Shown here piece by piece: positions 17,329 to 57,885 of a DNA stretch of 57,885 nucleotides. The DNA comes from Candidatus Micrarchaeota archaeon (GTDB lineage: Archaea; Micrarchaeota; Micrarchaeia; Norongarragalinales; UBA8480), in assembly GCA_021812145.1 (NCBI GenBank), contig JAKAOM010000004.1, positions 1 through 57,885 of the forward strand. Reading direction: 5' to 3'. Below the pieces are notes generated by a model. The model saw nothing but the letters and a program-made list of their open reading frames with translations. It was not told where the DNA came from and ran no database searches. How positions within the stretch are numbered: position 1 is the first letter of the stretch; every line of letters begins with the position of its first letter. The position numbers were made by a program, and so were the translations under genes.

Positions 17329-17354
17329 TTTCAGAACTCTTTTTAATTATTTAA

Positions 17355-18626: not shown

Positions 18627-18631
18627 GTTTG

Positions 18632-18958: not shown

Positions 18959-19039
18959 TCTAATGACAAAGACCTCAAAAACAAGCAAAAGGTAGTTAGG
19001 GTTTATAACACGATTGAATTGATTTAGAAATTATAAAGC

Positions 19040-20929: not shown

Positions 20930-20974
20930 AGAGTTTAATCCCTTTTTGTTTTTTGTAGTGTTTTTCTTATTTTT

Positions 20975-21592: not shown

Positions 21593-21800
21593 TTGTAACC
21601 CATTCCTTTTAGGTTATTTTTAGAATTGCCTCTCTATTGATTTTTAGAGTGATTTAACTTTAATAATAGCAAATTATTTAACTCTTTCGTTGATTTTTGG
21701 GGTTGTTTTTTGTTTGTACGCCGTGTTTTTCTCATTTTTTAGTTTTTTTCATGGATTGCTTTTTATTTTTTCGCTTTCTGTAATTAAGCAGGTGTTTTAT

Positions 21801-22199: not shown

Positions 22200-22207
22200 A
22201 ATGCTAA

Positions 22208-22639: not shown

Positions 22640-23295
22640 AATCCTTTTTTGAACTTTAATTTTTTGACGTAATTTTCTATATTTTCAGCTTCGCTTTGTT
22701 TTTGTCTGACTAGCTCTTCTGGATTCATCTTTGATTTCATCATTTTATGCAGCCTTATTTCATCATCATGAAGGTCTAGTATGCCGTAAGCTTCTGCGGC
22801 TAGGTTATAAAGCTGAAGTTCTTCAAATCTTTTTGGTGCTTCCCTTCTGTCTTTTGAGAAGTTCCATGCGATAAGCGCTTTCTGAAAACTTTCATTTCGT
22901 ATTTCATCAATCCAATTATCCAAGTGATTCCAAAAATGGCGATCGGTTGGCGGGTAAGTTATAGGATTGAGCGTATCTCCAATTTTATATGATTTTGATG
23001 ATAGTGCAACAAGTTTTTTTTCTGAGAGTGTTTTGTATATTATTCCAACTAAACGGTCTTCTTTTTCCTCACTTATGTTTTTTGACACAAAATTGCTTCT
23101 CATTTCTTCAAGAATCGCGCTTATTTTCCTGTATTTATCATATTCCCTGCTTTTTGTTGGTAATTTTGATTTTTCATCTATCTGCCTTTTTATATAGGCG
23201 ATGAATCTTTCCCTTGCAGCAGAGGTTGGAAGTTCATTTACCTTTTTCAATTCGCTTCTTATTCTTTGAATATCCTGAATTACTTTTTCAACCAT
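22627..23295 (-). CDS. hypothetical protein
   Basis: 222 aa, charged and helical. I recognise no family. Confidence 0.4.
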   Translation of the reverse strand: MVEKVIQDIQRIRSELKKVNELPTSAARERFIAYIKRQIDEKSKLPTKSREYDKYRKISAILEEMRSNFVSKNISEEKEDRLVGIIYKTLSEKKLVALSSKSYKIGDTLNPITYPPTDRHFWNHLDNWIDEIRNESFQKALIAWNFSKDRREAPKRFEELQLYNLAAEAYGILDLHDDEIRLHKMMKSKMNPEELVRQKQSEAENIENYVKKLKFKKGFQSR

Positions 23296-23494: not shown

Positions 23495-24139
23495 ATGATA
23501 GACAAATCAACTATAAACAAAATGATAAAACTCGCGGAAAAGCACAACGTTAGAAGCGATCCTTCCCATGATATAACTCATTTGAAACGGGTATTGGCAA
23601 ACGCGGTTTTTATAGCTTCAAAAGAGGGGGCAGATTTGGATGTGGTGGTACCTGCTGCCATATTCCATGACCTTATAACCTATAGAAAGGATGACAAACG
23701 CTCAAAAAACGCTCAGGCAGAAAGCGCTAGGCTTGCTGGAAGGATTCTAAAAAGGATGGGATTCAAAAAACAAAAAATAAAAAGCATAGAGTACGCCATA
23801 GAGGTTTGCTCGTTTTCAAAAAACATAAAGCCCAAGACGCTTGAAGCGAAAGTGTTGCAGGACGCGGATCTTCTTGAGGCAACCGGTGCAATATCTATTA
23901 TGAGGACTTTCGCTTCTTCAGGCGTCATGCAGAGAGCGTTTTACAACGAACGGGACCCTTTCTGCAAAAATAGAAAGCCGAACTCTCTGAATTACTCTGT
24001 TGACTTGTTTTATGACAGGCTGCTAATCGCAAGAGGCAGAATGCACACCAAAACAGCGAAGAATCTTGCGTTAAAAAGAACGAAATTCCTTATAGAATTT
24101 ATAAAGCAATTAAAACGCGAGTTGAGGGTATTCAGTTAA
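23495..24139 (+). CDS. HD-domain phosphohydrolase
   Basis: 214 aa with HDITHLKRV and AAIFHDL (H...HD...D metal-binding pattern). Confidence 0.7.
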   Translation: MIDKSTINKMIKLAEKHNVRSDPSHDITHLKRVLANAVFIASKEGADLDVVVPAAIFHDLITYRKDDKRSKNAQAESARLAGRILKRMGFKKQKIKSIEYAIEVCSFSKNIKPKTLEAKVLQDADLLEATGAISIMRTFASSGVMQRAFYNERDPFCKNRKPNSLNYSVDLFYDRLLIARGRMHTKTAKNLALKRTKFLIEFIKQLKRELRVFS

Positions 24140-42882: not shown

Positions 42883-43392
42883 ATGAAAAATAGGTTTTTT
42901 GAACTTGCGGTTTCTTTTACCTTTGGCTTTCTTTTCATTTCAATCCCCCTTTACCTTTTCCTAAACCTAACTATTCTTCCAGAGTGGCTTGCGGCCTTCC
43001 TTTCGCAGGCTGTTTTGGGTTTTCTAGGCAACGGCTTTATTTTGTTTTGGAGCGGTGGGTTTCCCGCTTTGACAAACGGCCTGTACTCTGTTCAGATTGT
43101 CAGCCTATGCAGCGGGGTTCTGGAAATTTCCGTCTTGGCGGGAATAATCCTGGCGAGCATGGACGTTTCTTTTAGAAAAAGATTGGAAGGCATTGCCTTT
43201 GGCGTTGTTTTCATAGAGTTTATAAACGTTTCAAGGATTGTTCTGAGCGTTTTGGCTTTGGGTTCTGGCAGTTTTGTTTTTTTCCACGATTTTCTTTTCA
43301 GGCTCACGTTGATTATAGGAATCGTGATGTTTTACTTCTTCTGGTACGTTCTCGTTGAAAAACAGGGATTTGGCGTTAGAGCAAAGTTTTAA
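42883..43392 (+). CDS. small exosortase/archaeosortase-family-like membrane protein
   Basis: 169 aa with about 5 TM helices. VSLCSGVLE (Cys76), FINVSRIV (Asn115-x-x-Arg118) and FFHDF (His135) occur in the order and spacing I associate with the exosortase/archaeosortase core. Confidence 0.55.
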   Translation: MKNRFFELAVSFTFGFLFISIPLYLFLNLTILPEWLAAFLSQAVLGFLGNGFILFWSGGFPALTNGLYSVQIVSLCSGVLEISVLAGIILASMDVSFRKRLEGIAFGVVFIEFINVSRIVLSVLALGSGSFVFFHDFLFRLTLIIGIVMFYFFWYVLVEKQGFGVRAKF

Positions 43393-43418
43393 AAGTTTGA
43401 ATTTTTCTATGTTTAAAC

Positions 43419-44876
43419 ATGGCTGGAGAAGTGGAAAAGAAAAGCAGCACCATATTTAAAACTGTTGTCAAAGCTCAGGAGCCTTTCGTTCCTCCTTCTG
43501 AAAAGAATAAGTTCATGCAATATCACAGCGGGGTTTCTTCCGGGGATCTTGAAAGGCTGGGAATAGAATTCGGAGTTAGGGATTCAAGGGGTTTGGAGCA
43601 CGCCGAGAGGGCGAAGCATGTTTTCGGAATAAACGGGGAAGAATTCAAGAAGGTTTACGATAACTTAAGAAATAGCGGTTTCGGGCCTTCTGACAAAAAC
43701 ACGATAGGGGACAAAACCATTTTTGTTATAACAAGCGGGCTGCATAAGAAGTTTGAAAACACCGCGTTCGGGCTGCTTTTGTCTTCAAGGAAGGACACGA
43801 AAAAAGCTTCAGACAGCGACATAAACAGGAGCATTGCCATCGAGTCAGAGCTTAAAAGGGACAGTCCGTTGAAAAACTCTGGTTTAAACGCTTACAAGAC
43901 TGAAAATAAGGATGAGGTTATAAGCGCTTTAAATGATTATGATAATATCAAAAACCTTCCAGGAGCTATTGACACGTTGGTTTACAGCATCAAAACAAGC
44001 ATTCCTCCCAAGGTTTTGCATGAAAGCATAAGAGATCTGGAGGGCGTCGAGCAAAAGAAAAAGTTTCTGGAAACTGTTGAAAAGCTCATGTCCAGGCTGG
44101 AGACGAAAAAGGGGGCTGAAGCAACCAGAAGGATCACGCTGAATAAAATCAAGGCTTTCAACAAGGTTAAAAACGACCCTTTTTCACGCGAGGTTTTTGA
44201 GTTGAGCATGAGCACAGGGCTTAATTTCAACGATCTGCTAAAGGAGGTTAGAAGGGTTGGGGACGAGGAGGAACTTAGAAAGGGAATTGTCAGGAATTTT
44301 GAAACCTTCAACAGAAGGGTGTCGGATGTTTTCGGAGGCGATTTCGCAGAGCGGTTGAGCGCCAAATCTACTTTTGAGATTGGGTCCGAGTTGAGCAAAA
44401 AGGGATTAAGCCTGGATAGAATGCTGAAAGACGAGGCGGTAAAAAAGCTTTTTCTAGCAACGAGGTTTAACAGGCCGTTTGTCGAAGAGTTGAAGGTGAA
44501 ACCGCTTGGCTTTATTCCAGCCGATAATTTCGCGAGGCTTTACACTCTAAGCAGGAGTTACGGCTTGGACTTCAAAAAGCTTGTGCAGAATTACGGGGGC
44601 GAAAACGTAAAAAGAAATCTGAGCATAATTCTTAACGAGGCCAGAGGCGCAAAGCCTTTAGGCCTAACCTACAGCAACCTCATGGACAGGTTTAGAAAGC
44701 TCGGAATTCAAACCAACGAGGACAAGGAGGTCGGCTTGATCGCCTACAACAAGGGGATACCTCCAGAGCGTTTTGCGAGAATAAAGAGGGATGCTGAGAG
44801 CGCAGGCCTGCATCCTTTTGTTCTTGTCGACCTTTTGCCTAGGGGCGGGGTAAAGCAGAAGCAAAGCCCGGCATAG
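43419..44876 (+). CDS. hypothetical soluble protein with a recurring G-[LI]-x-[FLP]-x-x-[LFM] helix motif
   Basis: 485 aa with no TM helix. At least eight copies of the motif occur: LGIEFGV, FGINGEEFKKVY, TGLNFNDLLKEV, KGLSLDRMLKDE, LGFIPADNFARLY, YGLDFKKLVQNY, LGLTYSNLMDRF, KGIPPERFARIK. Confidence 0.5.
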   Translation: MAGEVEKKSSTIFKTVVKAQEPFVPPSEKNKFMQYHSGVSSGDLERLGIEFGVRDSRGLEHAERAKHVFGINGEEFKKVYDNLRNSGFGPSDKNTIGDKTIFVITSGLHKKFENTAFGLLLSSRKDTKKASDSDINRSIAIESELKRDSPLKNSGLNAYKTENKDEVISALNDYDNIKNLPGAIDTLVYSIKTSIPPKVLHESIRDLEGVEQKKKFLETVEKLMSRLETKKGAEATRRITLNKIKAFNKVKNDPFSREVFELSMSTGLNFNDLLKEVRRVGDEEELRKGIVRNFETFNRRVSDVFGGDFAERLSAKSTFEIGSELSKKGLSLDRMLKDEAVKKLFLATRFNRPFVEELKVKPLGFIPADNFARLYTLSRSYGLDFKKLVQNYGGENVKRNLSIILNEARGAKPLGLTYSNLMDRFRKLGIQTNEDKEVGLIAYNKGIPPERFARIKRDAESAGLHPFVLVDLLPRGGVKQKQSPA

Positions 44877-44910
44877 GTTTTTAATTGTTTGAATCAAATT
44901 ATCTTGAACG

Positions 44911-46197
44911 ATGAAAACAGCGAAAAAGGGTTTTATATCCACTCCTCTGCTTGGAACCATAATCTTTTTGATAGCGCTTGTTTTTGTCGTGAATTTGAGT
45001 TTGAGCGAAAGGAACGCGGTTTCGCAGGCTACTACTAATGCTTATGACAATAGGCTAGTTAGCCTTATCGACTCCTATAATCTTGACGCCGCAAGCCAGA
45101 TGACTCAGAGTGTTAAGTCAAGCGTGGAAGGGTTTTTGGGAGGGGGTTGCTGGACTGCTTTCAACATTCCTTACGCTACAAATAGCAATTCCAACCTATC
45201 CTCTGATCGTTTTCAGTTCTGCAATAATGCGCTTACTCTGATTAAAGACGTTGCTTGCACTCAAACAACAACCGGTGTCAACGGTGTCAACAATTACTAT
45301 ACTAAGGGGGTTACGGTACCTCCAGTTTTAAGCACCACGTTTGGCTTGCAAAATGAGCTTTCTTATTTAACCTCTCCCCAGAGTTTTGAGAGCTTCAATC
45401 TTTACGCCACCAACGCGGCTAACTTAACTAATCTTATTGGTAGTGGCCTTTATATTAGTTTTTGCAACGCTCTTCTTGGAGAACCTTTGTTTGACTGCAA
45501 TGCTTTTGCTGCTGGAAAGTTTCAATGCTGTTTGAACGCCCCTTCTAATAACAGCGTTTACACAGGCCAGCCTGAATGCAACCAAAGTGATTCGAATTAT
45601 GTTCCGGGGTGCGAGGATGGAACTTTTTATTTCATGCTTAATCTTACAGATAGTAACGTTTATCCTTACCTCCCTAGGGTTGGCGCTAACGATTCAAGCG
45701 GAAATTTTTTGAACTCCAATGTTTTGGCGTATTCTAACCCCTATATTTATATAAACTATCCTTTGTTCAAGTATTTCAACGCCACTTACACTGTAGTTCA
45801 GACAGTAGTGTCTTCACTAAATTCACCCTCATATAACTGCAAGTACGCGCCTGGGGGCGGGTTTTCCAGTATTCCCTCTGTTAGTTGTTCTTCATCCCCC
45901 CCTAGTAGTATTGGAAGTTTAATAAATTCTTCTCTGTCTGAGTATGGTTTGAATTACCTAAATTTTACCTCAACTTCTTCTTTTCTATGCCCTTCTGCTG
46001 GTACTTCCTGCCCATCTAACCTGTCTGCCTTTTTTACTTCTAGTTCGTCCTCGCCATGGTATTTTACTGCACCTTATTCATCAATGTCACTTCAAACTAA
46101 TGATTGGAGTCCGTTGTATCTGGTTAATCCTCAAAGTTCAAACCAATTCTGCATGGATATTAAATGGGATAACGCTTTCTCTTATGTTACCGGTTGA
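44911..46197 (+). CDS. large Cys-rich secreted protein with type IV pilin-like (class III) N-terminal signal
   Basis: 428 aa. MKTAKKG|FISTPLLGTIIFLIALVFVVNL has basic residues, Gly and a hydrophobic helix. The remainder is Asn/Ser/Thr/Tyr-rich with more than 12 Cys and many N-x-S/T sequons. Confidence 0.6.
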   Translation: MKTAKKGFISTPLLGTIIFLIALVFVVNLSLSERNAVSQATTNAYDNRLVSLIDSYNLDAASQMTQSVKSSVEGFLGGGCWTAFNIPYATNSNSNLSSDRFQFCNNALTLIKDVACTQTTTGVNGVNNYYTKGVTVPPVLSTTFGLQNELSYLTSPQSFESFNLYATNAANLTNLIGSGLYISFCNALLGEPLFDCNAFAAGKFQCCLNAPSNNSVYTGQPECNQSDSNYVPGCEDGTFYFMLNLTDSNVYPYLPRVGANDSSGNFLNSNVLAYSNPYIYINYPLFKYFNATYTVVQTVVSSLNSPSYNCKYAPGGGFSSIPSVSCSSSPPSSIGSLINSSLSEYGLNYLNFTSTSSFLCPSAGTSCPSNLSAFFTSSSSSPWYFTAPYSSMSLQTNDWSPLYLVNPQSSNQFCMDIKWDNAFSYVTG

Positions 46198-46223
46198 TGT
46201 TTTTTTTATTAAAACCGGTTTTT
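46189..46223 (+). terminator. possible hairpin terminator between the pilin-like gene and giant gene 1
   Basis: ACCGGTT (46189..46195) pairs with AACCGGT (46213..46219) across a T-rich loop and is followed by TTTT. Confidence 0.3.
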
Positions 46224-46240
46224 GAAGGCATGAAAAACAT

Positions 46241-46250
46241 TTTTAAATAA
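46241..46250 (+). promoter_or_regulatory. TATA-box-like element upstream of giant gene 1
   Basis: TTTTAAATAA lies 22-31 nt upstream of the ATG at 46272. This would give a leaderless or very short-leader transcript. Confidence 0.3.
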
Positions 46251-46271
46251 TGAGCATTCAATTTTACTTTA

Positions 46272-49200
46272 ATGGACTTGAAGTCTTTCACCGACAGTTT
46301 AAAGGTGAAGTATGAGGATTTCGTTTCAACCTTGGAGGATAAAGGAGTTCCTCACGCAAGGCTCGTTGTTCCTTTGGTTGCTTTGCTTGTGGTTGCAGGG
46401 CTTGTTTTTGTTGTTTTATCCTCGTCTTCTATCTCTTCATACGGGGTTAAAGTAATCGACTTAAACACTTCAGCTCCCATTCAAGGGGCTAACGTCAGCG
46501 TTTTTTCAAACGGAGTTTTAGTTGCGAGCGGTTTAACCGACTCTAATGGAAACGCTGTTTTTAACCTAACCTCAGGAAGTTACACCATTTCCGCCACTTC
46601 AAGCAATTACCTTTCATCTTCTTCAGTTAAGCTTGTTCCTGGCGCGGTTGTTCAGCTTCAAAGTTCAATTCCTCCTTCTATGAATGTTGTTGTCAGTGTT
46701 TTGCAAAACGGGCAGCCTCAGCTTGGTCAGTTTATAACCCTAAGTTTCAGCGACGGTACTTCTGTCAACGGCAATACTAATATTAATGGAAATGCTTCTA
46801 TTCAAGTTCCTGAAAGTGAGTTGAGTAACGGCGCTACAGTGAGCGTTGACGGTAATTCAATTCCTGTTTCAAGTTCTGCCTTGTCTTCTGGATTGGTTTT
46901 AGTTAATTTGACTTCCTCTTCTCAGCCGTCTGCAATGCTTTACGTCTCTGTTGAAAGCCCTTCAGGAACGCCTGTGGGTGGAGCCCAGGTAAGTGTTTTA
47001 AGCAGTTCCACTCAGAGCGTTTTGGCTAATGGTTTCACCGACTCCACTGGCAGCGCTTCTTTCAACATTAGTGTAGGTTCAAGCGTTTACGTTACCGCTT
47101 CTGCTTCAGGTTATGGTTCTGGTTCTTCTAATAATTTTGTTTTTAATTCTTCTCAAAGAGTGGTTGTTCAGCTTTCAACCGTTTCGGCTTCCAGTAATTT
47201 AACGCTCAGCGTTCTTGATGAGAACAGCAATTTGGTTTCAGGTGCTACCGTAACTGTTTTCACGATGGGAAATAATCAAGTGTTTTCTCAAGCCACTCAA
47301 GGCGCTCCTCTTCAAATTCCATTAGCTTCAGGCGTTTACTACGCCAATGTTCAATACTCTGGTTATCTTCCTGCGATTGTTGAAAACCTTCGGGCTGGAA
47401 TGGTTAAAAGCGTTAGTTTGACTCCTTTAACAACTGGAAATTATGCAAATGTAAGCGTTTTGGTTTTGCAGGATGGAAGCGCTTTGCCAGGAGCCAGCGT
47501 AAGTTTCTACACTTCTGACGGGTTGTTTTTGTTCAACGGTCAAAGCGACGGCAATGGAATGGTTGAGGCTGCACTGCCTTTGACTCTTAACAGCCAGCCT
47601 TACAGTTTTTACGTGAACGGTTCTTATAACTCTCTTTTAGGGGAAAGTGATGTTTTTCAAATAGGAAACGACAATGTTTCCCTTCCGCTTTCAGCCCCTC
47701 CAGCCCAGTTGAAGGTAAGCATTGTTGATTTTGCTTCCAAAGCAGCGGTAACGGGGTTTGTCAACGTGGTGGTTGGAGGCAATATTATTAACACTTGCAA
47801 TGGCACTTCTTGCGTTTTGAACGTTCCTGGCGGTTCTGCTTTTAACTTGAACGTTCAAGCTTCAGGCTACCTTCCTTTCACTTCAAGCGTTTTAACTTAC
47901 GCTTCTGGCAGTTTGAATTCTTTGACTGTTCCTCTTTACCCGCTTGGCTTGGTTTCAGGCGCCAGCGCGAGTTTCGTAGGTTTGTACGATTCTAATGGGA
48001 ACAGGGTTTTGCAGGTTGTCAATGGAATGACTTACGACGCCAGGTTTTTGGTGAACATGCCTGAAAGCGTGCAAAGCGCTGGGTTTTACGTTAGGGTTGG
48101 AGAGGAGGGAAATTCTTCAACCGACCCTGCTTTCATAACAGGCTACACTCCTGCTTCTTTCATTCAAACAGGCAGCGTTTATCCTCAGGACTGCACTTCT
48201 GGCGACAACCCTTCAAGCCAGGCGAAGTGGCTTTTATGGAGCTTCCCTCAGGGTTTTACAGGAAGCAAGGAGGTGGATGTTAGGATTCAGTTAAGCCTTA
48301 ACTCTTCAGCTTCCACTCCTATTGTTTTGTACTACAAGGCTTTCGGTCAGCTTTCCAATGGCTTGAGCGTTTACTCGCCTGTGAATACTGCTTTAACTCA
48401 GGGGAATTTCAGTCTTTCAGCCGCGTGCAATTCAACTGATTTTTCTCAAACTCTTCCTTTCTCTTCAAATCCTTTGACTTGCAGCGTTATTAACAATCAC
48501 GAGTTTTGCTATTCGATGAGTTTTTCAAGCAACGGCTTCAGCAGTTTGAACTTCAACCCTACCTTAGGTCAGCAGTTTCAGGTTAACTTGAATGTTTTAA
48601 GCGACGTGGGCATCAACGGTTTGACTTTGTACGCGCCTAACTTTAAAATTTCCCAGAACAGCTTCTCTCCTGCTAGTTCTTCCTCATCTAAATTCTCGGA
48701 AAACAACTTTCTGAGTTTTCAATCATCCGACCTGTCTAGTTTGACGGCAAGCTCCACTGATATTGGAAGTCTTCTACAAAACTCCCAGTCATCCACTCAA
48801 TCTGTTGGAACTTTGATTCCATTCGCCGCCAACGCAAACCAGCTTTCCACCCTTTCCCTATCTTTAACTCCTATAACACCTACTGTTTACGCGCCTCTTT
48901 CTTTCAACTTCCAGGCTGATGACGGTTCGCAGCTTAGCTTTTCTCAAAACTTAAACATTCAAGGCACTGGAACGCTTAACGTTCAGGTTTCTCCCAATTC
49001 CTGGACTGCGCCTGGAAACATAAAAGGAAAAATGACCATAACAGATGGTTTCGGCAATCCTGTGAGCGACGCTACCGTTTCTCTTACCGAGTGCTACGGA
49101 AGTCCTTTTAACGGCAATCCGCCAGCGGTCAACAGTCAAGGAAATGGTGTTTACTCTTTCCAGGGCCAGTTGTTCGGAGGAGGAATTGTTGGAGTTTCAG

Positions 49201-52200
49201 TGCAGGATCAAGGGTTTAAAAATTACGATTCCTGCAGCGTGCCTGTTCAGGAGCAGAGTTTTCTAAGCGTAAACCCTTCCAGCCTTACTTTTTCAGGCGA
49301 TTCGCTGAATCCAATCAGCCAGCAGGTGACTGTTTCAAATCTTTTGAACAATCCTGTAAAAGTCAGCGCTATTGTTAATTGTTATTCGGGAAGCAATATT
49401 TTTTCAGCAATTCCGCCTTATCTTACTCTGCCTGCCAGCGGTTCGAATCAAATAGCGGTTAACGTGGTTCAAAATTCAAGCGGTAACGCTCAATGCGTTT
49501 TAGATGTGGTTGGTGTTGACGGCAATTCAAGAGATTCCGAGCAGGTGCAGCTTTCTGGAAGTGTTTCCTGCCCTGAATGCGTTTTAAACCAGCAGATCGC
49601 TTATGAGTTGAGCAATCTTCCTTCAATGATAGCGCTTTACCCTGCAGGCCCTCAAACCGTTGGGCAGACTGTTTACGGCTTTAATTCAATTCCGGTAAAT
49701 TTCCCTACCGTTCCCACTTGCTCTTTGAGTTTGACTCAAGGAGGAGGCGCGTTTCCCTTCTCAGGAAGCATGTATCCAGGCGTTGCGATTAGTCCTACTG
49801 GAAGTCAGCTTGTGCAGTACGGCTGTCAAACTTGCAGTTCCAATGGCGATGGGAGTTTCAACTGCAATAATTGCCAGAGTGGGTATCCTTCTGCTTTCAG
49901 TTGCGAGATTTGCCAGCCTTCTGAAAATTACCTTCCTTCCACTTACCAAAACAATCTTTACAACAGCAATCCAGGTTACTTGGTTTTGTGGCCTAGCGCT
50001 TCATGCAGCTCTTGCATTTCAGGCGGAACTGTTGGAGTGGTTGCTTCAGGCGTTGCCAGCACTAACGGGTTGATTTCGCTTCCTGTTTCCCAGCAGCAGT
50101 TTTTCGGCAATGTTTTTTCAGGTAATAATATTGGAATGTCCGGCATGTTTGGAATTGGCGGAATGTTCGGCCAGCAGGGGCAGGCTAGCTGCACTGCAAA
50201 CCAAATTCAGGTTTCAGCTGCTTTGAACCCTTACAATTCAATCTCAGGGACTTTAACCTTGACTTTTTCGAACGGCATGACTGCGCAGATTCCTGTGGTG
50301 GGTCCTGCGGCAGGAATTCTTGGCTTCAGTCAAATTGCCAACGCCACTCCTCAGGAGAACTGCAACTTCCCGAATCTTTTCACCGTTAATCTTTACAGCA
50401 ATCTTTCAGAGCAAAATTCAACCACTGCTAATATTAATAACAATTGCAATATACAGGATAGTAATATTAACAATTATTATTTTCAAGGAAATCCTTTGAA
50501 TGGTAATTTTGGATGTAAATTTTCTGAATCCAACAATGTTTTAAGCGTTCAGAATTGCGATTTTTCAAGTTCTTCTGACGTTGCTAGCTATTATATAAAT
50601 AAAGGTAATGTGGATGATTTAAACGCATCTTCAACGATTGGAGTTGCAAAGCAGGGACAAAAGAAATATAATGTAAGCGTTAAATTTACTATAGGTAATT
50701 TAGATTATCATCTTAATGTCTTTAATGATTCAGACGCTTTACACAAAGATTATTGTGGAGGTGTTTTAGATTGTCCTGCCTCTGACAGTAATGGAAAGCC
50801 ATTTCTTAACGTGAGTTATGGTTTCCCTCAAGTAGCCAATTCTCAGCAGAAGTTTGTCACTTCTACTTTCAATGGGCAGACGAGTTCTTATGCAGTTAAT
50901 GATTTACAGGGTTATTTGTCAATTCCTGTAACCACCCCTATAACTCAAGGTTCTGTTTATAACCTTGGTTTGAATGTCACTCAGGGCAGCACCAGTTCAA
51001 GAATTACGACTTGCGCTGTTACTGTAAATCCTTGCTCGTCATCACCTACTCCTATCCCAAGTCAACCTTCTTGTACTTTAAGTCAAACGTCAATCAAGAG
51101 CGGAAGTACTGAAAATGTAAATGTTAATGCATTGGTTTCACTAACCACTAATCCAGCTTCAGTTATTATCAATTGTGGAAACCAGCAGTCAGTAACTGCA
51201 AATTGTGCTCTTACTAAAAACAATAATCTTTATCAGGGAACATGCAGTGGAATGTGTTCTTATACTCTTACTTCTAATTCACAAACATACTCTATAAACT
51301 CAGCTCCTGGCGGTGGCGCTACCTGCGCTCCTTTATCCATTAATCTTAATAGCAATGGACTACAGCCTAATCCTTCAACATATACTCTTGCGTTTTACCA
51401 GCAGTTCGATGTTGGTGATTTTAAGAACAATCTTTTCAGTCTGCTTTCAACCAGCCAGCTGACAGCAGGTGATAATGGACGCGGTTATGTTTTATTAACT
51501 CCTTCCACTAAATTTGTTGTCTACTCAACTAATCCAGCCATAAATGCTATTGCATTAGTTCCTGCGTCAGATTCAACTATTCCCTCCTCTGATTGTTCAA
51601 GCAACCAATATTTAAATTGCTGGAATAAGTTCAATGGTGGTTTTATTTACATACCTGCTTACAACATATTTAGTGGGCCTGTGTCGTCATCATACAGTAT
51701 TCTTCCTTCAACCTATGAATACCCTTCAAATCAGGCGTTCAATATATTAATAAAAGAAAATAGTGGTTACCTATATATTTCTAGTTTAGGCGGTAATAAT
51801 GGATATACTACCTCAAATTCAGCTCCTGGAAATTTGAATGGTGTTTTGGTTATAAGTCCTGATTATTTAGGTGGGACAACAGGGGTAATAAACGGAAATA
51901 GTAAGAATTATAATATTTATTCAAGTTGCGCTACCCCTTCAGCTAATTCAATAGGAAATGTTTGGGTTTTTAAAACAACTGCTGACAGTTCGCTTAACTT
52001 ACAAAACTATGTCCCTGGCTCTTTTGACATAATTTCAACTAATAGTGGAAGCCTTAAAACTTCCCAAGGTCAAAACGTTTATTTATATGGTTGTTTACAG
52101 TCAGGGCAGTCTGGAAATGCAGTTGCTATAACCTCAAACATACAGAATCTTTTCAGTGTTAATCCGCTTATAACTTCAAATTCTTTACATAAAAACAGCG

Positions 52201-52388
52201 AAGGCAGTTATGAATTCTTCCAACAATTAAGCATGTCACTTCCATCAAATGGAATTGTTGAGTTTAATCTCAAGTTAACTCCAAGTGGTTCGTCTCGTTA
52301 TTACTGTCATGCGTGGCCAGTAGTACTCGAAAATTGCGACGGAATTAGTAAGGATAGTTCTATACCGCAGCAATTGTCCGTTTCTTAA
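46272..52388 (+). CDS. giant N-terminally anchored surface protein 1 (2038 aa)
   Basis: A 30-aa charged N-terminus containing LEDKGVP is followed by one TM helix (aa 31-50) and then six ~85-aa repeats with the TDSNGNAVFNL / G-x-Y carboxypeptidase-regulatory-like signature. After these come Cys-containing modules. The protein is very rich in S/N/T/G/V/Q, almost devoid of K/R/E/D, and has many N-x-S/T sequons. Confidence 0.85.
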   Translation: MDLKSFTDSLKVKYEDFVSTLEDKGVPHARLVVPLVALLVVAGLVFVVLSSSSISSYGVKVIDLNTSAPIQGANVSVFSNGVLVASGLTDSNGNAVFNLTSGSYTISATSSNYLSSSSVKLVPGAVVQLQSSIPPSMNVVVSVLQNGQPQLGQFITLSFSDGTSVNGNTNINGNASIQVPESELSNGATVSVDGNSIPVSSSALSSGLVLVNLTSSSQPSAMLYVSVESPSGTPVGGAQVSVLSSSTQSVLANGFTDSTGSASFNISVGSSVYVTASASGYGSGSSNNFVFNSSQRVVVQLSTVSASSNLTLSVLDENSNLVSGATVTVFTMGNNQVFSQATQGAPLQIPLASGVYYANVQYSGYLPAIVENLRAGMVKSVSLTPLTTGNYANVSVLVLQDGSALPGASVSFYTSDGLFLFNGQSDGNGMVEAALPLTLNSQPYSFYVNGSYNSLLGESDVFQIGNDNVSLPLSAPPAQLKVSIVDFASKAAVTGFVNVVVGGNIINTCNGTSCVLNVPGGSAFNLNVQASGYLPFTSSVLTYASGSLNSLTVPLYPLGLVSGASASFVGLYDSNGNRVLQVVNGMTYDARFLVNMPESVQSAGFYVRVGEEGNSSTDPAFITGYTPASFIQTGSVYPQDCTSGDNPSSQAKWLLWSFPQGFTGSKEVDVRIQLSLNSSASTPIVLYYKAFGQLSNGLSVYSPVNTALTQGNFSLSAACNSTDFSQTLPFSSNPLTCSVINNHEFCYSMSFSSNGFSSLNFNPTLGQQFQVNLNVLSDVGINGLTLYAPNFKISQNSFSPASSSSSKFSENNFLSFQSSDLSSLTASSTDIGSLLQNSQSSTQSVGTLIPFAANANQLSTLSLSLTPITPTVYAPLSFNFQADDGSQLSFSQNLNIQGTGTLNVQVSPNSWTAPGNIKGKMTITDGFGNPVSDATVSLTECYGSPFNGNPPAVNSQGNGVYSFQGQLFGGGIVGVSVQDQGFKNYDSCSVPVQEQSFLSVNPSSLTFSGDSLNPISQQVTVSNLLNNPVKVSAIVNCYSGSNIFSAIPPYLTLPASGSNQIAVNVVQNSSGNAQCVLDVVGVDGNSRDSEQVQLSGSVSCPECVLNQQIAYELSNLPSMIALYPAGPQTVGQTVYGFNSIPVNFPTVPTCSLSLTQGGGAFPFSGSMYPGVAISPTGSQLVQYGCQTCSSNGDGSFNCNNCQSGYPSAFSCEICQPSENYLPSTYQNNLYNSNPGYLVLWPSASCSSCISGGTVGVVASGVASTNGLISLPVSQQQFFGNVFSGNNIGMSGMFGIGGMFGQQGQASCTANQIQVSAALNPYNSISGTLTLTFSNGMTAQIPVVGPAAGILGFSQIANATPQENCNFPNLFTVNLYSNLSEQNSTTANINNNCNIQDSNINNYYFQGNPLNGNFGCKFSESNNVLSVQNCDFSSSSDVASYYINKGNVDDLNASSTIGVAKQGQKKYNVSVKFTIGNLDYHLNVFNDSDALHKDYCGGVLDCPASDSNGKPFLNVSYGFPQVANSQQKFVTSTFNGQTSSYAVNDLQGYLSIPVTTPITQGSVYNLGLNVTQGSTSSRITTCAVTVNPCSSSPTPIPSQPSCTLSQTSIKSGSTENVNVNALVSLTTNPASVIINCGNQQSVTANCALTKNNNLYQGTCSGMCSYTLTSNSQTYSINSAPGGGATCAPLSINLNSNGLQPNPSTYTLAFYQQFDVGDFKNNLFSLLSTSQLTAGDNGRGYVLLTPSTKFVVYSTNPAINAIALVPASDSTIPSSDCSSNQYLNCWNKFNGGFIYIPAYNIFSGPVSSSYSILPSTYEYPSNQAFNILIKENSGYLYISSLGGNNGYTTSNSAPGNLNGVLVISPDYLGGTTGVINGNSKNYNIYSSCATPSANSIGNVWVFKTTADSSLNLQNYVPGSFDIISTNSGSLKTSQGQNVYLYGCLQSGQSGNAVAITSNIQNLFSVNPLITSNSLHKNSEGSYEFFQQLSMSLPSNGIVEFNLKLTPSGSSRYYCHAWPVVLENCDGISKDSSIPQQLSVS
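46440..47948 (+). repeat. array of six carboxypeptidase-regulatory-like (beta-sandwich) domain repeats in giant protein 1
   Basis: Units begin at YGVKVIDL, MNVVVSVL, MLYVSVES, LTLSVLDE, VSVLVLQD and LKVSIVDF. Each has a central [TS]D-x-x-G-x-[AV]-x-F/[IL] turn and a distal G-Y motif. Confidence 0.65.
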
Positions 52389-52509
52389 TTTAAGCTTTGT
52401 TATATTCTGAATCATTATTTTTTATGCTTTGTTTATTTGTACTTGCTTTTTTGCTTTCAAATGGTTTAAAGAGTAGGTTTTTTAAGTTTGCTTATTTAAA
52501 AATTAAGTG

Positions 52510-55500
52510 ATGGCTTCTTTAAAGGATTGGTATTACGCGGTCGAGGACAAATACTATGATTTGATGGACTCGGTTGAAGAGAAAACCCATGTTTACGAAT
52601 GGTTTGTCAATCCGTTGGAGGATAAGGGTGTTCCGAGTTTTCCTGTTTTCGTTTTAGTTATTTTGGCGTTGATTGCAGTAATTGCCTTTCTTGTTTCAAG
52701 CTTTTTGGTTCCTTCTCAGACTTCAATGCAGTTGAGCGTGCTGTCCAGCGTTGGACCTACTCCTATTCCAAACGCTACTGTTTCTGTTGCTTTCGGAAGC
52801 CAGGTTTTGAGCAATCAGACTGACGCTAACGGAAACGTGAGTTTTCAGGTTCCCGCCAACACACAAGTTAGAGTTTCTGTAAGCGCTAATGGCTTTAATC
52901 CTTTCAGCGAGGAAGTATCCACCTCCTCTCAGTCCATAACCCTTCCCTCAGCTATAACCCTAAGCTTTGCTTCCTTGTCTACTCAGGAGTTTTTGTTTAA
53001 CGTGGTTGATCAGAATGGCAATCCTTTGAGCGGGGCGAGCGTGGTTGTTAATATTTTGAGTGGGGGAAGTGCTTTGACAGGGTTGACTGATTCTAGCGGG
53101 CACGTTGTTTTCAACGTCACTGAGAACAGCATTTTGACTTATACTGTTTCACTTGCGGGTTATGTTCAGGCTTCTGGCAGCGTAGCCAGCAGTTCTTTTA
53201 ATCAGACTGTTTCTTTGGCAGCTTCAAGTACTGTTTCTGTCACTCAGGGTGGGTCGCAACTGTCTGACGGAGAGGTTTTTGTAAACGTTAACGATTCTAA
53301 TGGGAATCAGGCATTTGGAACGGTTGATGTTTACGACGCTGTCAGCAACAAGCTTTTGCAGTCCGACACTGAGAATGGTAGTTTTTCTTTCAACGTTACT
53401 TTAGGGGAGAGTGTTTACGTTACTTTCAGCGGCAATGGCTTTGTTCCTCAGACGAGCAGCCCTCAGACTGTTTCCAGCGAGAATTTTTTCACTTTAACCG
53501 CGATTCAGGCTACTCCTTCCACTTCTGAAAACATTACTGCGAGCGTGGTTGATCAGAATGGCAATCCTTTGAGCGGGGTTGAAGTTCAGCTTTTTCAAGG
53601 CGGTTCCGTTCTTGAGAGCGATTCGACTGATTCATCGGGAAGCGTTGTTTTCACTGTTTCCAAAAGCGTTGGGTTGAATTCTCTTTACTTGACAGGCTAT
53701 CTTCCAGGTTATCTTCCTGCTCAGATTACTAGCGTTTCTTTGAGCAATAATCTTGTTTTGAACCAGCTCTTGGTCGGCGGTTACGGAAGCGTTAACGTTA
53801 ACGTGGTTGACGCTGGAGGCAACCCGGTGGTTAACGGCAATGTTAATTTTTACACTGCTTCAGGATTGAATTTAGGGGTTTACCCTGTGCTTCAAACCGA
53901 CACTAATGGGAATGTTAATTTTCAGGGTTTGCCTGTCAACGTTTCTCTGATTGTTAAAGCTTCTTATAACGGAGCTTTCGGTTCAAGCGATGCGTTTACT
54001 CTGAACGGTGGTGAAAATACAAGCGTAAACATTCAGCTTTCAAGGCCTTTGGCTGAAGTCACTGTCAACGCTGTTGATTTGGTTTCTAAAAAGCCTTTGG
54101 CCGGAGCTAGCGTGCTTGTTTCAACTCTCCAGCAAAACCTGCCTGTGGAAAACTGCACCACCAACAGTCAAGGAGTTTGCGTTTTGAACAGCGTTTGGGC
54201 TGACGGCACTCAGCTTGTTTTCACTTCTTCCTTAAACGGTTACGCTCCCTACACTTCCGCTCCAATAGCGTTCAATCCTTTGAGCAGCAATGTAGAGAAT
54301 ATCAACATGGTTTCTAACGCTTTCAACAATCAAACACTAGTCGTTTTTAACGGTGTTACTGATTTGAACGGGAATACGGTAACCAGCTTAACTCAGGGTG
54401 GTTTCTATATTTTTCACTTCACAGCTTCTTTCGTTAATTCAAGCCAGCAGGAGAGTCTGATGTTCAGGGTAGGGGATCAAAGCACTGTAAGCAATGAAAG
54501 CGCTTACCTTTCAAGCTTTTCATATTCTCCTTCAATCGTCCAGCCGCAAGTGGTTGAAAGTTCAAGCTACAATCCTTCTGGCGATTGCAGCCAGGATGTT
54601 CTTAGCACTCCTACCAATGGAGAGGGGAAGTGGGTTAAAATAACCTATTCTGGTTTGAGCGGTACAGCCGAGCTGAACCCGATTGTTTTTGTAAACCCAA
54701 ACACTGCTGGTCAGACTGTTAATTTCTATTATCGCGCTTCAAGCGTTGTAAACGGGATTTATTCAAGAGACCCCTTCGATACAACCTTAAACTATTCTCA
54801 GAAAACCCAGAGCCTGGATTCTTGCTACGCTAATTCCCATAAATTGTCTTTCAATGTTATTCAGGGATCTAACTACTGCAATGCTCAGGGCACTGCGTGC
54901 GTTCAGCTTTTGTTCAATGGAAATCCAAGTCCTTTCACTGGCTTGCTTAACCAGCCTTTCAATGTTAGCTACAAGCTTTCGAATTTCGGGCCTGTTGACG
55001 CTCAAAGCGCTTATGTTTTAGTTAAAAGCTTGGGAAATAATATTCTGTTTAACAGTTACTCCGGCGATGGTAGCGCTTCCATTCCTCAAAGCGGGGCTTT
55101 TTCAGCAAAGGTTTTGCTTGGAAGCTCTTCTGAAAACTATTCCGGCAGTTTCGCTTCAGTGGGAGTGCTTCCTGTTTCAGGCAGTCAGGTTTACTTTGAG
55201 TTCGGTGATACCAGAGGAGCTATTTTATCTTCCAAAGGCTTTGTTTCTACCACTGGAAATGACGGTTTGAATGTTCAGGTCTCTTCAGGCAACTTCACTG
55301 TTGGAACTAAGCAGACTTTAACCGTTCTTGTAACCAGTGTTTCTAATAATCAGCCTATAACTGACGCTACCGTGTCATTGAACGAGCTGCAGGGCACTGT
55401 CTTTAATGGAAACCCTACCTCTCCTGTTGTTGGTGACGGGGGGCCTGGAAGCGGAGAGAATGGAAAGTATGTTTTTAACAATTTGATAACCCTGGGGCCT

Positions 55501-57885
55501 GGTGTTTTTCAGGTTCAGGCTTCCGAGCCTAACTTTCAGCCAGGGTCTGCGAATTTGAACAGCATTCAAACAAGCTTTTTCACTATCTCTCCAAGCGATT
55601 ATCTTCCCTTGACTTGCAATACAACGAACATGCAGGTTACCAACAATCTTGACATTCCTGTTTCTTTAACAATAAGCTCTTCTTGCGCTAACGTGAGTGG
55701 TTTCAACGTTCCTCAGGAGCCGAACGGCAATTATTTCATTTCCGCAGTCCAGCCTGGCAAGACTGTTTTTCTAGGGGTTCAACCTACCAGCGCAAGCAGC
55801 TGCATAATGACCTTCACCTCTTCTGACCCTAGAAGCGGGTATAATTATTTTAATCAACTGCAAGTTCAGAACAACTGCAACACTTTCGGCCAGGTCAACT
55901 ACAGCGGAGCTGCCGGGGTTATCCAAATAACAAACGGAGCTTTCAATCCTAACTATGATGAGATTTACGCCACATTAGGCCAGCAGTATGCCGCTCAGCA
56001 AATGAATAACTATTTCACCACTGGAAGCTTGTATGGAATTTCAGGCTATGGAACCAGCCCTGTCTACGGGGCGCAGTATGGAAACATGTATGGAGTTAGC
56101 GGGTTAGGTTACACTAATAATCAGAACCTTTTAGTTCCTAATTCACCTTATAACTTTCAATATTACCAGCAGACTGGCATTAACCCTACTTCTAACCCTA
56201 TGCTTTCTCTTTCCTTTAACGCTAACAGCCAAATGGCTCAGCTTCCCAAGGCTATTGCCTGGATTAACAACGATCCGGTGGCCTATAACTTGAGTTGTTC
56301 TGAGTATAACAGCGGAGTTACTGCGTTCACCAATCAGCTTGTCCAGCCTGGAGGAACTTTTGTCTACAACTTTTCCTCCTATGGCTTGTATTCCTGTAGT
56401 TTAAGCAACGGAGCGGTTGGCCAGGTTCAAATAGACAGTGTTTGTCAGGGCATGAGCGCGCAGTGGATTACCGGCTTGTGGGAGAACTGCATGGCTAGAA
56501 GCTTCATTAACAACGCAGGCTGGTTTGGAAGCGTTACAGGCGAGGATCCTACTACAAAGAAGATAAGCGCCAGCATTGACAACCAATTCACTTTGACTTT
56601 AGGTGGTTTGGTGTTGACAAAGCATTCAGATAAACAGTCAACCTGCACTCAAACTCCTAATGGAAATATTGCTTGCATTGTCATGGTTTCTCCAGTAGTT
56701 CCTGAGAATGGGCTTGCTTTCGTTATGAACGCCGACCCTAAGACAGGAGTTTCAAAATTCGTTTATAACCAGAATAATCCGAGTACTATCACCGTAGGGA
56801 TAGGGCCTGACTTTTCACATGTGAGCACTCCTATTAAAGATACAACCGCCGCATCTTCTATTGCAAGCAATTGTTTTCAGCCTTGCTCTTTGACCGAGTC
56901 AACTGACCAGTGTGGATTTGCCAACACTATAACAAGCACGCTTAAAAACGCTCCTCAAGAAGTTTTTCAGGGTTTGGGCTTGGAGTCGCAGCCTAACCAG
57001 TTTCCTTACATTGTACGGTTCAACCCAAGCGGGGATTGCCTTCAGACAAGAATCGTCTTAAACAAAACAGGACAGCCTTACGCTGAAACAATGTTCGTGG
57101 ACCCGATCAGCAAAAAGGTTTTATGCGCAGATGGAACTTCGTCTTCAGATCCTACCGGCTGTGGTTATAACTCCAATGGTCTTTTAAATGTCGCCCAATT
57201 CCTTTCTTTTAATCTTAATCTGGTTGGTGCTGAAAGCAACGGTAATCTGCAGGGCACTGTTTCTTTCATCGCGAAAATTGATCCTATGTACGACTTTCCT
57301 TTTCTTTTCTACACTGTTCCTCAAGTTGGCAGCACTATAACATTCAGAAGTGTTAACGCTACAGAACCTGTTTTCATAATAAATAACCTGCCCTCTCTTT
57401 TGTCTATTGATAATAAAAACAATAAAAACGCCAACATTTCATTTTGCTCGGGATACGCTGACACAAGTGGGACTTATAACTTAGGTGGATCTTCACCTAC
57501 GCCTGGCTGCTCAAGCGGAAATAGCCAGGAGACTGTAAATGAAAGTCTGCCCGATAGTATACTCTACACTACGCCCGGAGTCATAAATACAAAAACCAAG
57601 GAGGGTAAAACGCAGTATCAGTTGAATTTGGTTTTCGGAACTGGTGTTAGCGCTCCAAATAACGGTATTAACGTGCAATTGCCTTCCTCATCTTCATCTT
57701 CCCCTCAGGCTAACTCTTTTGACACCTTGGGAAATGTTGCCGGCGCTAGCAATAATAACCTTTATGCTCAGGCGCCTAGCGGGGTTAGCCAAACCGATTT
57801 TAACAATATCGCAAAGTGCAGTGGAGATAATTGGTGCGATCAAAAAGACCTTCAGGCTGCTGAAACTTCAATAAAGAATATAGTT
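52510..57885 (+). CDS. giant N-terminally anchored surface protein 2 (partial, at least 1792 aa, continues past window end)
   Basis: Absent from the ORF track because there is no stop in the window. I translated the frame from the ATG at 52510 by hand and found it open for 1792 codons to the last base. It starts MASLKDWYYAVEDKYYDLMDSVEEKTHVYEWFVNPLEDKGVPSFPVFVLVILALIAVIAFLV. Architecture and composition match giant protein 1. Confidence 0.85.
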   Translation, partial: MASLKDWYYAVEDKYYDLMDSVEEKTHVYEWFVNPLEDKGVPSFPVFVLVILALIAVIAFLVSSFLVPSQTSMQLSVLSSVGPTPIPNATVSVAFGSQVLSNQTDANGNVSFQVPANTQVRVSVSANGFNPFSEEVSTSSQSITLPSAITLSFASLSTQEFLFNVVDQNGNPLSGASVVVNILSGGSALTGLTDSSGHVVFNVTENSILTYTVSLAGYVQASGSVASSSFNQTVSLAASSTVSVTQGGSQLSDGEVFVNVNDSNGNQAFGTVDVYDAVSNKLLQSDTENGSFSFNVTLGESVYVTFSGNGFVPQTSSPQTVSSENFFTLTAIQATPSTSENITASVVDQNGNPLSGVEVQLFQGGSVLESDSTDSSGSVVFTVSKSVGLNSLYLTGYLPGYLPAQITSVSLSNNLVLNQLLVGGYGSVNVNVVDAGGNPVVNGNVNFYTASGLNLGVYPVLQTDTNGNVNFQGLPVNVSLIVKASYNGAFGSSDAFTLNGGENTSVNIQLSRPLAEVTVNAVDLVSKKPLAGASVLVSTLQQNLPVENCTTNSQGVCVLNSVWADGTQLVFTSSLNGYAPYTSAPIAFNPLSSNVENINMVSNAFNNQTLVVFNGVTDLNGNTVTSLTQGGFYIFHFTASFVNSSQQESLMFRVGDQSTVSNESAYLSSFSYSPSIVQPQVVESSSYNPSGDCSQDVLSTPTNGEGKWVKITYSGLSGTAELNPIVFVNPNTAGQTVNFYYRASSVVNGIYSRDPFDTTLNYSQKTQSLDSCYANSHKLSFNVIQGSNYCNAQGTACVQLLFNGNPSPFTGLLNQPFNVSYKLSNFGPVDAQSAYVLVKSLGNNILFNSYSGDGSASIPQSGAFSAKVLLGSSSENYSGSFASVGVLPVSGSQVYFEFGDTRGAILSSKGFVSTTGNDGLNVQVSSGNFTVGTKQTLTVLVTSVSNNQPITDATVSLNELQGTVFNGNPTSPVVGDGGPGSGENGKYVFNNLITLGPGVFQVQASEPNFQPGSANLNSIQTSFFTISPSDYLPLTCNTTNMQVTNNLDIPVSLTISSSCANVSGFNVPQEPNGNYFISAVQPGKTVFLGVQPTSASSCIMTFTSSDPRSGYNYFNQLQVQNNCNTFGQVNYSGAAGVIQITNGAFNPNYDEIYATLGQQYAAQQMNNYFTTGSLYGISGYGTSPVYGAQYGNMYGVSGLGYTNNQNLLVPNSPYNFQYYQQTGINPTSNPMLSLSFNANSQMAQLPKAIAWINNDPVAYNLSCSEYNSGVTAFTNQLVQPGGTFVYNFSSYGLYSCSLSNGAVGQVQIDSVCQGMSAQWITGLWENCMARSFINNAGWFGSVTGEDPTTKKISASIDNQFTLTLGGLVLTKHSDKQSTCTQTPNGNIACIVMVSPVVPENGLAFVMNADPKTGVSKFVYNQNNPSTITVGIGPDFSHVSTPIKDTTAASSIASNCFQPCSLTESTDQCGFANTITSTLKNAPQEVFQGLGLESQPNQFPYIVRFNPSGDCLQTRIVLNKTGQPYAETMFVDPISKKVLCADGTSSSDPTGCGYNSNGLLNVAQFLSFNLNLVGAESNGNLQGTVSFIAKIDPMYDFPFLFYTVPQVGSTITFRSVNATEPVFIINNLPSLLSIDNKNNKNANISFCSGYADTSGTYNLGGSSPTPGCSSGNSQETVNESLPDSILYTTPGVINTKTKEGKTQYQLNLVFGTGVSAPNNGINVQLPSSSSSSPQANSFDTLGNVAGASNNNLYAQAPSGVSQTDFNNIAKCSGDNWCDQKDLQAAETSIKNIV
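52726..54336 (+). repeat. array of six carboxypeptidase-regulatory-like domain repeats in giant protein 2
   Basis: Units begin at MQLSVLSS, FLFNVVDQNGNPLSG, VFVNVNDSNGN, ITASVVDQNGNPLSG, VNVNVVDAGGNPV and VTVNAVDLVSKKPLAG. Each has a TD-x-x-G-x-V-x-F turn and a G-[YF] motif. Confidence 0.65.

Follow-up and report, generated by a model that had tools for sequence, protein, structure and literature searches.

To our knowledge, no substrates are known for the orphan archaeosortases ArtE and ArtF or for the exosortases XrtF, XrtG, and XrtM (names as in NCBIfam). ArtE, itself uncharacterized, is required for natural transformation in Methanococcus maripaludis, a process that depends on type-IV-like pili (PMC10133366). 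Archaeal type IV filament (TFF) loci of "system 2" have been described as combining one platform gene with genes for large adhesin-like proteins, for ATPases whose N-terminal extensions are long, and for pilin-like proteins in which no class III motif is clear (bioRxiv 10.64898/2026.04.22.720090), and Micrarchaeota have been reported to encode TFF systems together with one FlaK-like peptidase (PMC5498576). Here we discuss a locus at the end of a 57,885-nucleotide stretch of a Candidatus Micrarchaeota genome (GenBank assembly GCA_021812145.1, contig JAKAOM010000004.1, positions 1 to 57,885 of the forward strand; hereafter the window), whose closest relative is a metagenome-assembled genome (MAG) labelled Candidatus Micrarchaeota. 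In this locus a gene for a small archaeosortase-family enzyme (the sortase) is followed by genes for a soluble protein (protein 2), a Cys-rich, prepilin-like protein (P3), and two giant surface proteins (giants 1 and 2). An original prediction, made from the letters of the window, had singled these genes out as a surface module, and the analysis reported here followed it up. We regard the cassette itself and its link to filaments as highly probable. For the wider reading, in which these genes form the adhesin/pilin sub-cluster of a Micrarchaeota-type TFF surface system with its own small archaeosortase-family enzyme, we put the probability at roughly 55%, the full mechanism proposed below being included in that figure.

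The conserved core of the locus is the sortase gene, followed by the P3 gene and then by one or two giants. In nine divergent lineages, the sortase has a co-oriented homologue of P3 no more than two genes downstream, and a giant comes after P3 in seven of the seven cases where the contig continues (L001, L006, L009-L012, L014). When P3 served as the sole seed for a search of metagenomes, loci L009, L010, and L011 were found, with P3 proteins 31-33% identical and a GC content of 0.53-0.60 versus 0.41 in the window; in each of them P3 has a sortase gene upstream, immediately so in L010 and L011 and beyond a 129-aa open reading frame (ORF) in L009, as well as a giant immediately downstream, all in the same orientation. 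One of these giants, complete with its 2686 aa, lacks a transmembrane (TM) helix at its C-terminus. The loci found with the sortase as seed (L006, L012, L014, L017, L019) show the same order, with none to two genes between sortase and P3. Thus, in L006 (GC content 0.60, sortase 38% identical), the sortase is followed after a 26-nt gap by a 729-aa protein that starts MERRGFVAAPLLGTIIFL... and has the Cys pattern and motifs of P3, and the next gene encodes a protein that starts ...LEDKGVPEPNVIVPL and continues into immunoglobulin-like (Ig-like) repeats; in L012 (Micrarchaeota CG1_02_51_15) the order is sortase, a 193-aa protein, P3, and a giant of 2432 aa; in L014 (Norongarragalinales-type) it is sortase, P3, a giant of the giant 1 type, a 429-aa protein, and a giant of the giant 2 type, which has the same two-part leader as giant 2 of the window and is its best match (phmmer E 1.7e-60); and in L017 and L019 the sortase is followed by one or two inserted genes, P3, and the contig end. 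Some junctions are very tight: the gap from sortase to next gene is 26 nt in both the window and L006 and 8 nt in L011, and in L014 sortase and P3 share one base. The flanks vary, with POR in the window and HhH-GPD, an ORF for a multi-TM membrane protein, or LeuRS elsewhere. In L001-L003, whose sortases are 75-82% identical, the entire neighbourhood is common with the window, and their synteny says little because such close relatives share everything around the locus; it is the same order in distant lineages with different flanks that makes the cassette more than chance. Co-localization in relatives had been proposed as a test of the module, and the homologues of sortase, P3, and giants proved to be syntenic rather than scattered.

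The same sortase subfamily recurs beside one clade of TFF ATPase and platform genes. In five lineages (L018, L015, L016, L007, L019), the sortase lies within ~5 kb of an ATPase of ~750 aa and/or a platform protein of ~700 aa: in L015 a T2SSF protein (25.8 bits, cutoff 25.2) ends one base before the sortase start, in L016 and L007 a T2SSE ATPase adjoins the sortase, and in L019 a TFF ATPase is found ~4 kb away. The fullest arrangement is that of L018, where one strand carries a T2SSE ATPase of 749 aa, a T2SSF platform protein of 672 aa, two pilin-type genes, and a giant; the 173-aa pilin starts MRG|QEEAPFEILIG..., the 396-aa pilin-like protein starts MKG|FSVFAAF..., the giant has a two-part leader (...EKGIP...QVGIPTFP), and the sortase is divergent from the ATPase together with two more pilin-like genes. 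The four TFF ATPases are mutually 44-52% identical and the two platform proteins 35% identical over 700 aa, and therefore one specific machine is involved. In two lineages the cytoplasmic C-terminus of the sortase is joined to a pilin-like N-terminus of the form [KR]G-hydrophobic: P0088, which continues as ...KGFYAVTPFLGVIII... and whose likeness to P3 is limited to that N-terminal segment, and P0105, which continues as ...RRGLTVWVF... with a TM helix. These loci modify one element of the original prediction, according to which pilus paradigms do not explain the parts; the window does lack the machinery, as it had noted, but relatives place the sortase subfamily and the giants at TFF loci. As a separate observation, L016 also encodes a second, shorter T2SSE ATPase of 465 aa (13474-14871, + strand), which is ~25% identical to the 783-aa one and lies 3 kb from the sortase-pilin fusion gene.

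Judged by its profile match, the ORF at 42883 is a member of the exosortase/archaeosortase family that falls in no named subfamily. It scores 36.6 bits on the TIGR04178 exosortase/archaeosortase signature model (cutoff 23), has ~5 hydrophobic helices by hydropathy, and carries the catalytic-type arrangement C76, N115-x-x-R118, and H135. All 40 relatives that were aligned (27-39% identity) match TIGR04178 at E<=0.001, and C76, E81, R100, N115, R118, H135, F139, Y151, and W154 are invariant among them, so the family likeness first suggested by the Cys, Arg, and His residues is now well founded; hydropathy and the positive-inside rule place the Cys76/Arg118/His135 site probably at the outer face of the membrane. 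The profile searches that had been proposed as a check were thus positive for TIGR04178 and otherwise negative: PF09721, recorded for P0001 and P0002, two close homologues, does not match the window sortase at E<=1, and for the named subfamilies (ArtA-ArtF, pacearchaeosortase, heimdallarchaeosortase, XrtA-XrtY) the protein stays far under every curated cutoff, with ArtB the best (43.2 against a cutoff of 150), followed by ArtD (30/125), XrtM (28/125), ArtA (24/75), and pacearchaeosortase (17/80). An exhaustive profile search of 1.84 billion representative proteins gave just 225 at E<=1e-3, almost all of 160-220 aa, and the named members of the cluster come from Micrarchaeota, "Norongarragalinales", and Diapherotrites MAGs. 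A word-index protein search found very few relatives, and a locus search with close alignment found the sister MAG only.

P3 has the class III-type pattern at its extreme N-terminus, namely a short, basic leader with [KR][GA] as its last residues and, after it, a hydrophobic helix of ~20 residues, a likeness of pattern only. The leader MKTAKKG|FISTPLLGTIIFLIALVFVV of the window corresponds in relatives to MERRG|F, MHLRG|F, ..HSRA|F, and ..KRA|F, and the consensus [KR][GA]-F-[IV]-[SA]-[AT]-P-L-[LI]-G-T is kept across lineages in proteins of 29-33% identity, as are eight Cys and the motifs LFDC..FA, CC, GC..G.F, PRV.A.D..GN, and YP...Y. The ectodomain of the window protein has 14 Cys and 11 N-x-S/T sequons, and the description of P3 as a Cys-rich protein with a pilin-like signal holds. 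P3 matches no Pfam or NCBIfam profile, comparison of a P3 profile with the PDB gave nothing useful, and no P3 homologues were found in viral contigs. Elsewhere in the window (7027-7449, + strand) there is a 140-aa protein starting MKKGQSALEYLVTYGWAILAIVIVAAIL..., a textbook archaeal class III (pilin) N-terminus that Pfam Class_IIIsignal matches only at E=2; the genome therefore makes type-IV-like pilins, though the window holds no machinery for them.

The two giants had been described as collinear paralogues, which applies to their N-terminal ~1050 aa only (27% identity, E 2e-43), since their C-terminal halves are unrelated. In both, a leader of the form ...LEDKGVP precedes the TM helix; that of giant 2 is longer and acidic (...WYYAVEDKYY...NPLEDKGVP), and the consensus Y-E-x-F-x3-L-E-[DE]-[KR]-G-[VF]-P is common to seven homologues. 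In giant 1, the helix is followed by a stalk (residues ~55-600) of about six CarboxypepD_reg/Ig-like domains, described as Cys-free (the first Cys is residue 509); the protein has 42 Cys, dense from about residue 940, and 25 sequons over its whole length, and its domain matches are CarboxypepD_reg (E 5e-22) and bMG3 (E 5e-18). Giant 2 likewise has an Ig-like stalk and then a Cys-bearing remainder, with 36 Cys, the first at residue 549 and dense from about residue 1036, so that in both giants almost every Cys is distal to the stalk, and it matches CarboxypepD_reg (E 1e-27) and the prealbumin-fold SpaA domain (E 7e-8). On the parent contig, giant 2 runs 1296 nt beyond the window end and terminates in ...SLTCSSSR, with no hydrophobic or TM tail and no C-terminal anchor. 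No characterized S-layer or adhesin family was matched by the giants, the matches being to the generic Ig-like families CarboxypepD_reg, bMG3, Big_1, and SpaA, and a search against PDB sequences gave nothing under E 0.005; the earlier view of the giants as surface proteins without a C-terminal sorting signal is upheld. Among the functions then offered for them, an S-layer-like coat is the least supported, and we reject the giants as S-layer proteins, as there is no S-layer domain match and the known S-layer protein of Micrarchaeum is of a different type, the Micrarchaeota S-layer protein on record being a separate protein of ~101 kDa with an S-layer domain. Each giant also contains a low-complexity segment, Gly/Met/Phe-rich in giant 1 (~50121-50180, residues 1284-1303, GMSGMFGIGGMFGQQGQ) and Y/G/Q/N-rich in giant 2 (55954-56187, residues 1149-1226, ...YGISGYGTSPVYGAQYGNMYGVSGLGY...), placed where the divergent halves of the giants begin.

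The remaining gene of the five encodes protein 2, which by its distribution is a lineage-specific insert outside the conserved core, and its inclusion in the module by the original prediction does not hold. Homologues occur only in the close clade of the window, and elsewhere the slot is filled by an unrelated 129-aa ORF (L009), a charged protein of 193 aa (L012), or a nucleotidyltransferase or toxin-antitoxin pair (L017, L019); a comparison of protein 2 with the 193-aa protein of L012 showed no homology. Protein 2 is Lys/Glu-rich, without TM helix or Cys, and gave no Pfam, NCBIfam, or PDB match. An AlphaFold2 model from a two-sequence alignment is all-alpha with 27 helices, at a mean confidence (pLDDT) of 56; Foldseek with this model returned nothing under E 0.15, the top matches being designed helical repeats and TAL effectors. 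The protein is soluble, as first described, and the recurring short helix motif claimed for it is there in part: the protein has 6 copies of the pattern helix, G-[LI]-x-[FLP]-x-x-[LM], helix, where shuffles lead one to expect 0.8, a count for a pattern picked post hoc, while self-BLAST shows no repeat.

The five genes are co-oriented and consecutive, with gaps of 26, 34, 74, and 121 nt, exactly as the original prediction had them; the ORF list shows the first four as complete ORFs, and translation shows the fifth frame (Table 1). Beyond the window we used 4.5 kb of the parent contig, L004 (ENA ERZ27237364 k141_240580, 335,887 bp), on which giant 2 occupies 16239-22910. Extension of the contig had been recommended for the C-terminus of giant 2 and the next genes, and it shows that all genes after giant 2 are on the opposite strand, so that the module ends with giant 2. 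The four spacers are AT-rich, with T-runs, and in those before the giants (46198-46271 and 52389-52509) a T-run comes right after the preceding stop, along with A/T-rich, TATA-like stretches; for this reason, the giants may be transcribed from their own promoters rather than in one operon with the sortase. Upstream, ~30 larger ORFs were scanned in the window (1-42 kb, three without match), whereas the 4.5 kb past its end were covered by precomputed Pfam marks only. The scanned upstream ORFs are all housekeeping genes: transketolase, fibrillarin/Nop, proteasome, ribosomal protein S4e, SecY, PGK/GAPDH, and 2-oxoacid:ferredoxin oxidoreductase.

Table 1. Positions of the cassette genes, of sites within them, and of nearby proteins with C-terminal tails. 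Positions refer to the window unless a locus is named.
Feature	Position	Strand	Description
Sortase	42883-43392	+	169 aa, complete ORF
Sortase Cys76 codon	43108-43110	+	
Sortase Asn115 codon	43225-43227	+	
Sortase Arg118 codon	43234-43236	+	
Sortase His135 codon	43285-43287	+	
Protein 2	43419-44876	+	485 aa, complete ORF
P3 (protein 3)	44911-46197	+	428 aa, complete ORF
P3 basic leader	44911-44931	+	MKTAKKG
P3 hydrophobic helix	44932-45003	+	FISTPLLGTIIFLIALVFVV...
Giant 1	46272-52388	+	2038 aa, complete ORF
Giant 1 conserved N-terminal leader	46272-46346	+	...KYEDFVSTLEDKGVP
Giant 1 single TM helix	46362-46418	+	aa 31-49
Giant 2	52510-57885 (window end)	+	open frame from ATG 52510; 2223 aa in full
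Giant 2 TM helix	52639-52695	+	aa 44-62
C-tail protein past the window	L004 25777-26117 (its C-terminal end, ~4.2 kb past the window)	-	687 aa, faint NPCBM_assoc; ...SSVFPWKLAIIIILIIGIFVLIIREKEQY
C-tail protein, L011			1143 aa; ...DLKLAIGAIAIVLLAYAGYALMNKPPVAKK
C-tail protein, L014			1375 aa; ...PSWPEQTPLAALMLLTILGGVLAVRMRKHA
C-tail protein, L018			1471 aa; ...IPSIPEGIYGIFFLLGAGIVMILGHVYLSRRIRNKQNKKR

Several further features of the surroundings were recorded. In L014 (6999-9920), L017 (1491-4454), and L019 (3460-6333), the divergent neighbour of the sortase is a class I aminoacyl-tRNA synthetase gene, on the - strand in all three, and in the clade of the window an oxidoreductase beta subunit lies upstream of the sortase instead, which makes this neighbour useful as a clade marker. 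Toxin-antitoxin genes (PemK, MazE/PIN) are found beside or inside the cassette in L014 (5424-5774), L015 (381-722), L017 (248-855), and L019 (6943-7588), the pair of L019 lying between sortase and P3. Just past giant 2, L004 encodes on the - strand (23556-23783) a 75-aa membrane protein with a weak VKOR (PF07884) mark, adjoining a glyoxalase-family gene; a disulfide-forming helper near Cys-rich surface proteins is plausible, but this protein is short and without CxxC.

Under the reading that we favour, that of a TFF adhesin/pilin sub-cluster with its own sortase, P3 would be a large pilin-like subunit that enters the membrane via its N-terminal helix and is cut after [KR][GA] by a class III signal peptidase encoded elsewhere, and an ATPase and a platform protein, also encoded elsewhere in the genome, would build it into a short pilus or pseudopilus. 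A single N-terminal helix would hold each giant, preceded by the conserved cytoplasmic leader with [KR]-G-[VFI]-P at its end, with the Ig-like stalk (some six domains, taken as Cys-free) projecting the Cys-rich, glycosylated distal half outward into contact with a host cell or surface, and it may be through the acidic leader that the giant docks to the machine's cytoplasmic part. The sortase would mature proteins of this system at a site other than the classical C-terminal tail of motif, TM helix, and basic residues, and protein 2 would be a lineage-specific cytoplasmic accessory. The reaction of the sortase is the weak point of this model. The C-terminal tail by which the known substrates of exosortases and archaeosortases are defined is absent from the cassette proteins of every lineage, and if a Cys transpeptidase made its cut immediately outside an N-terminal anchor, sortase chemistry suggests that the ectodomain would be released rather than attached. 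Other observations also weigh against the model: no pilin or class III profile of Pfam or NCBIfam matches P3 or the giants, even with isolated N-termini at E<=10, a test with little power because the control pilin at 7027-7449 itself scores only E=2; the single-sequence AlphaFold2 model of P3, at a pLDDT of 33, is unusable; the leaders of the two giants are long (25 and 38 aa) and net acidic (-2 and -7), unlike the short, basic class III leaders; and no pilus ATPase, platform protein, or prepilin peptidase (A24) was found among the ORFs scanned across the 62 kb covered of the window genome, a lack that the original prediction had correctly reported for the window itself.

The tails that the cassette lacks are present not far away, which brings up a more conventional explanation, whereby the enzyme is a classical archaeosortase that cleaves and anchors C-terminally tailed, secreted proteins encoded at scattered places in the genome, S-layer-like ones for example, and sits beside P3 and the giants only through co-regulation of envelope genes. 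We consider this possible, if on the unlikely side. All characterized members of the family use C-terminal signals (review PMC6098224), and in four lineages a large secreted protein that ends in a TM helix and a basic tail is encoded 2-6 kb from the sortase (Table 1). These four tails have no clear common signature motif, and a candidate motif, KLAI, which is present in two of them, failed once the other two were added. Their density of about one per 50 kb is the ordinary level of archaeal surface proteins, and five other loci have none nearby. What the classical explanation leaves unaccounted for is the near-adjacency of sortase and P3 (at most two genes) over 30-50% divergence, the overlap or abutment of genes, and the two fusions to pilin-like segments. 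A bolder proposal is that the sortase subfamily is integral to the TFF machine and acts on N-terminal pilin-type signals, perhaps by trimming P3 and the giants, releasing them, or linking them covalently at the outer end of their helices; this we regard as tentative and, as it stands, unlikely. If true, this would be the first member of the exosortase family to do without the tripartite C-terminal signal, and no transpeptidase would have been tied to the pili of archaea before it.

The chemistry that troubles the favoured model would suit a third account, in which P3 and the giants, unrelated to pili, make up a coat whose proteins stay uncleaved and anchored by their N-termini, and the sortase cuts at the outer end of the anchor helix to shed or remodel them: a Cys protease in that position would free the ectodomain, the leaders of the giants are acidic and conserved in a way that class III leaders are not, and neither P3 nor the giants match a pilin profile. 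We find it improbable nonetheless, as the giant gene of L018 comes after those for the TFF ATPase, the platform protein, and two proteins with pilin-like N-termini on the same strand, members of the ATPase and platform clades are found repeatedly beside the sortase, the leaders of P3 are short and basic and end in [KR][GA]-F, and the giants differ from the known Micrarchaeota S-layer protein. The notion that chance alone put the five genes side by side, without any functional unit, is hardly credible: the AT-rich spacers with their T-runs could give each gene its own promoter and terminator, and protein 2 is not conserved, but the same order in nine lineages with different flanks contradicts it.

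The TFF sub-cluster thus remains our preferred interpretation, and its interest lies in the fact that one orphan archaeosortase subfamily has fixed partners, namely a pilin-like protein, giant adhesins, and a specific clade of pilus ATPase and platform proteins, so that the role of an orphan archaeosortase becomes a concrete and testable question. For the DPANN archaea, it would add a conserved candidate apparatus for host contact that takes up ~13 kb of a very small genome, and it defines targets for Micrarchaeota co-culture studies: P3, the two giant types, and the sortase. It might also explain why ArtE is needed in pilus-dependent DNA uptake in Methanococcus.

In comparison with known systems, the enzyme resembles ArtA of Haloferax volcanii, which has PGF-CTERM substrates, and the family at large in being polytopic, in matching TIGR04178 with conserved Cys, Arg, and His, and in having its gene beside those of large glycosylated surface proteins. 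It differs from ArtA in consisting of a core of only ~165 aa, in scoring under every named cutoff, in having neighbours whose hydrophobic signals are N-terminal rather than C-terminal, and in its link to TFF genes. With ArtE it shares the character of a small orphan archaeosortase, and 12 of the 40 aligned relatives match ArtE weakly, but the window sortase itself gives no ArtE match at E<=1, and a shared mechanism is a lead rather than a result. The Gram-positive SpaA-type sortase pili offer a parallel in a Cys transpeptidase encoded with Ig-like pilins or adhesins, as in the SpaA match of giant 2, whereas there the fold of the enzyme is unrelated, the signal is a C-terminal one of LPXTG type that the cassette proteins do not have, and the filament machinery associated with our cassette is type-IV-like. 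A large pilin-like protein encoded directly before a very large adhesin (P3 here and the 396-aa protein in L018) recalls the minor-pilin and tip-adhesin complexes of bacterial type IV pili and type II secretion (GspK, PilY1) and suggests a tip or priming complex, by analogy only, neither sequence nor structure giving evidence of homology.

The closest likeness is to the "system 2" loci (bioRxiv 10.64898/2026.04.22.720090; Makarova et al. 2016, PMC4858521), with which the loci of the relatives have in common an ATPase with a long N-terminal extension (~750 aa in the relatives), one platform gene, several pilins, pilin-like proteins whose class III motifs are not clear, and large, Ig-rich, adhesin-like proteins, a likeness by description. 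Neither of these two papers mentions a sortase (0 occurrences), and no description of a pilus-linked archaeosortase was found in the literature that could be searched. The window differs from "system 2" in that its adhesin sub-cluster stands apart from any ATPase or platform gene. Set beside these systems, the cassette appears to be a TFF adhesin module with a dedicated archaeosortase-like enzyme, a new variant beyond the TFF adhesin loci described so far.

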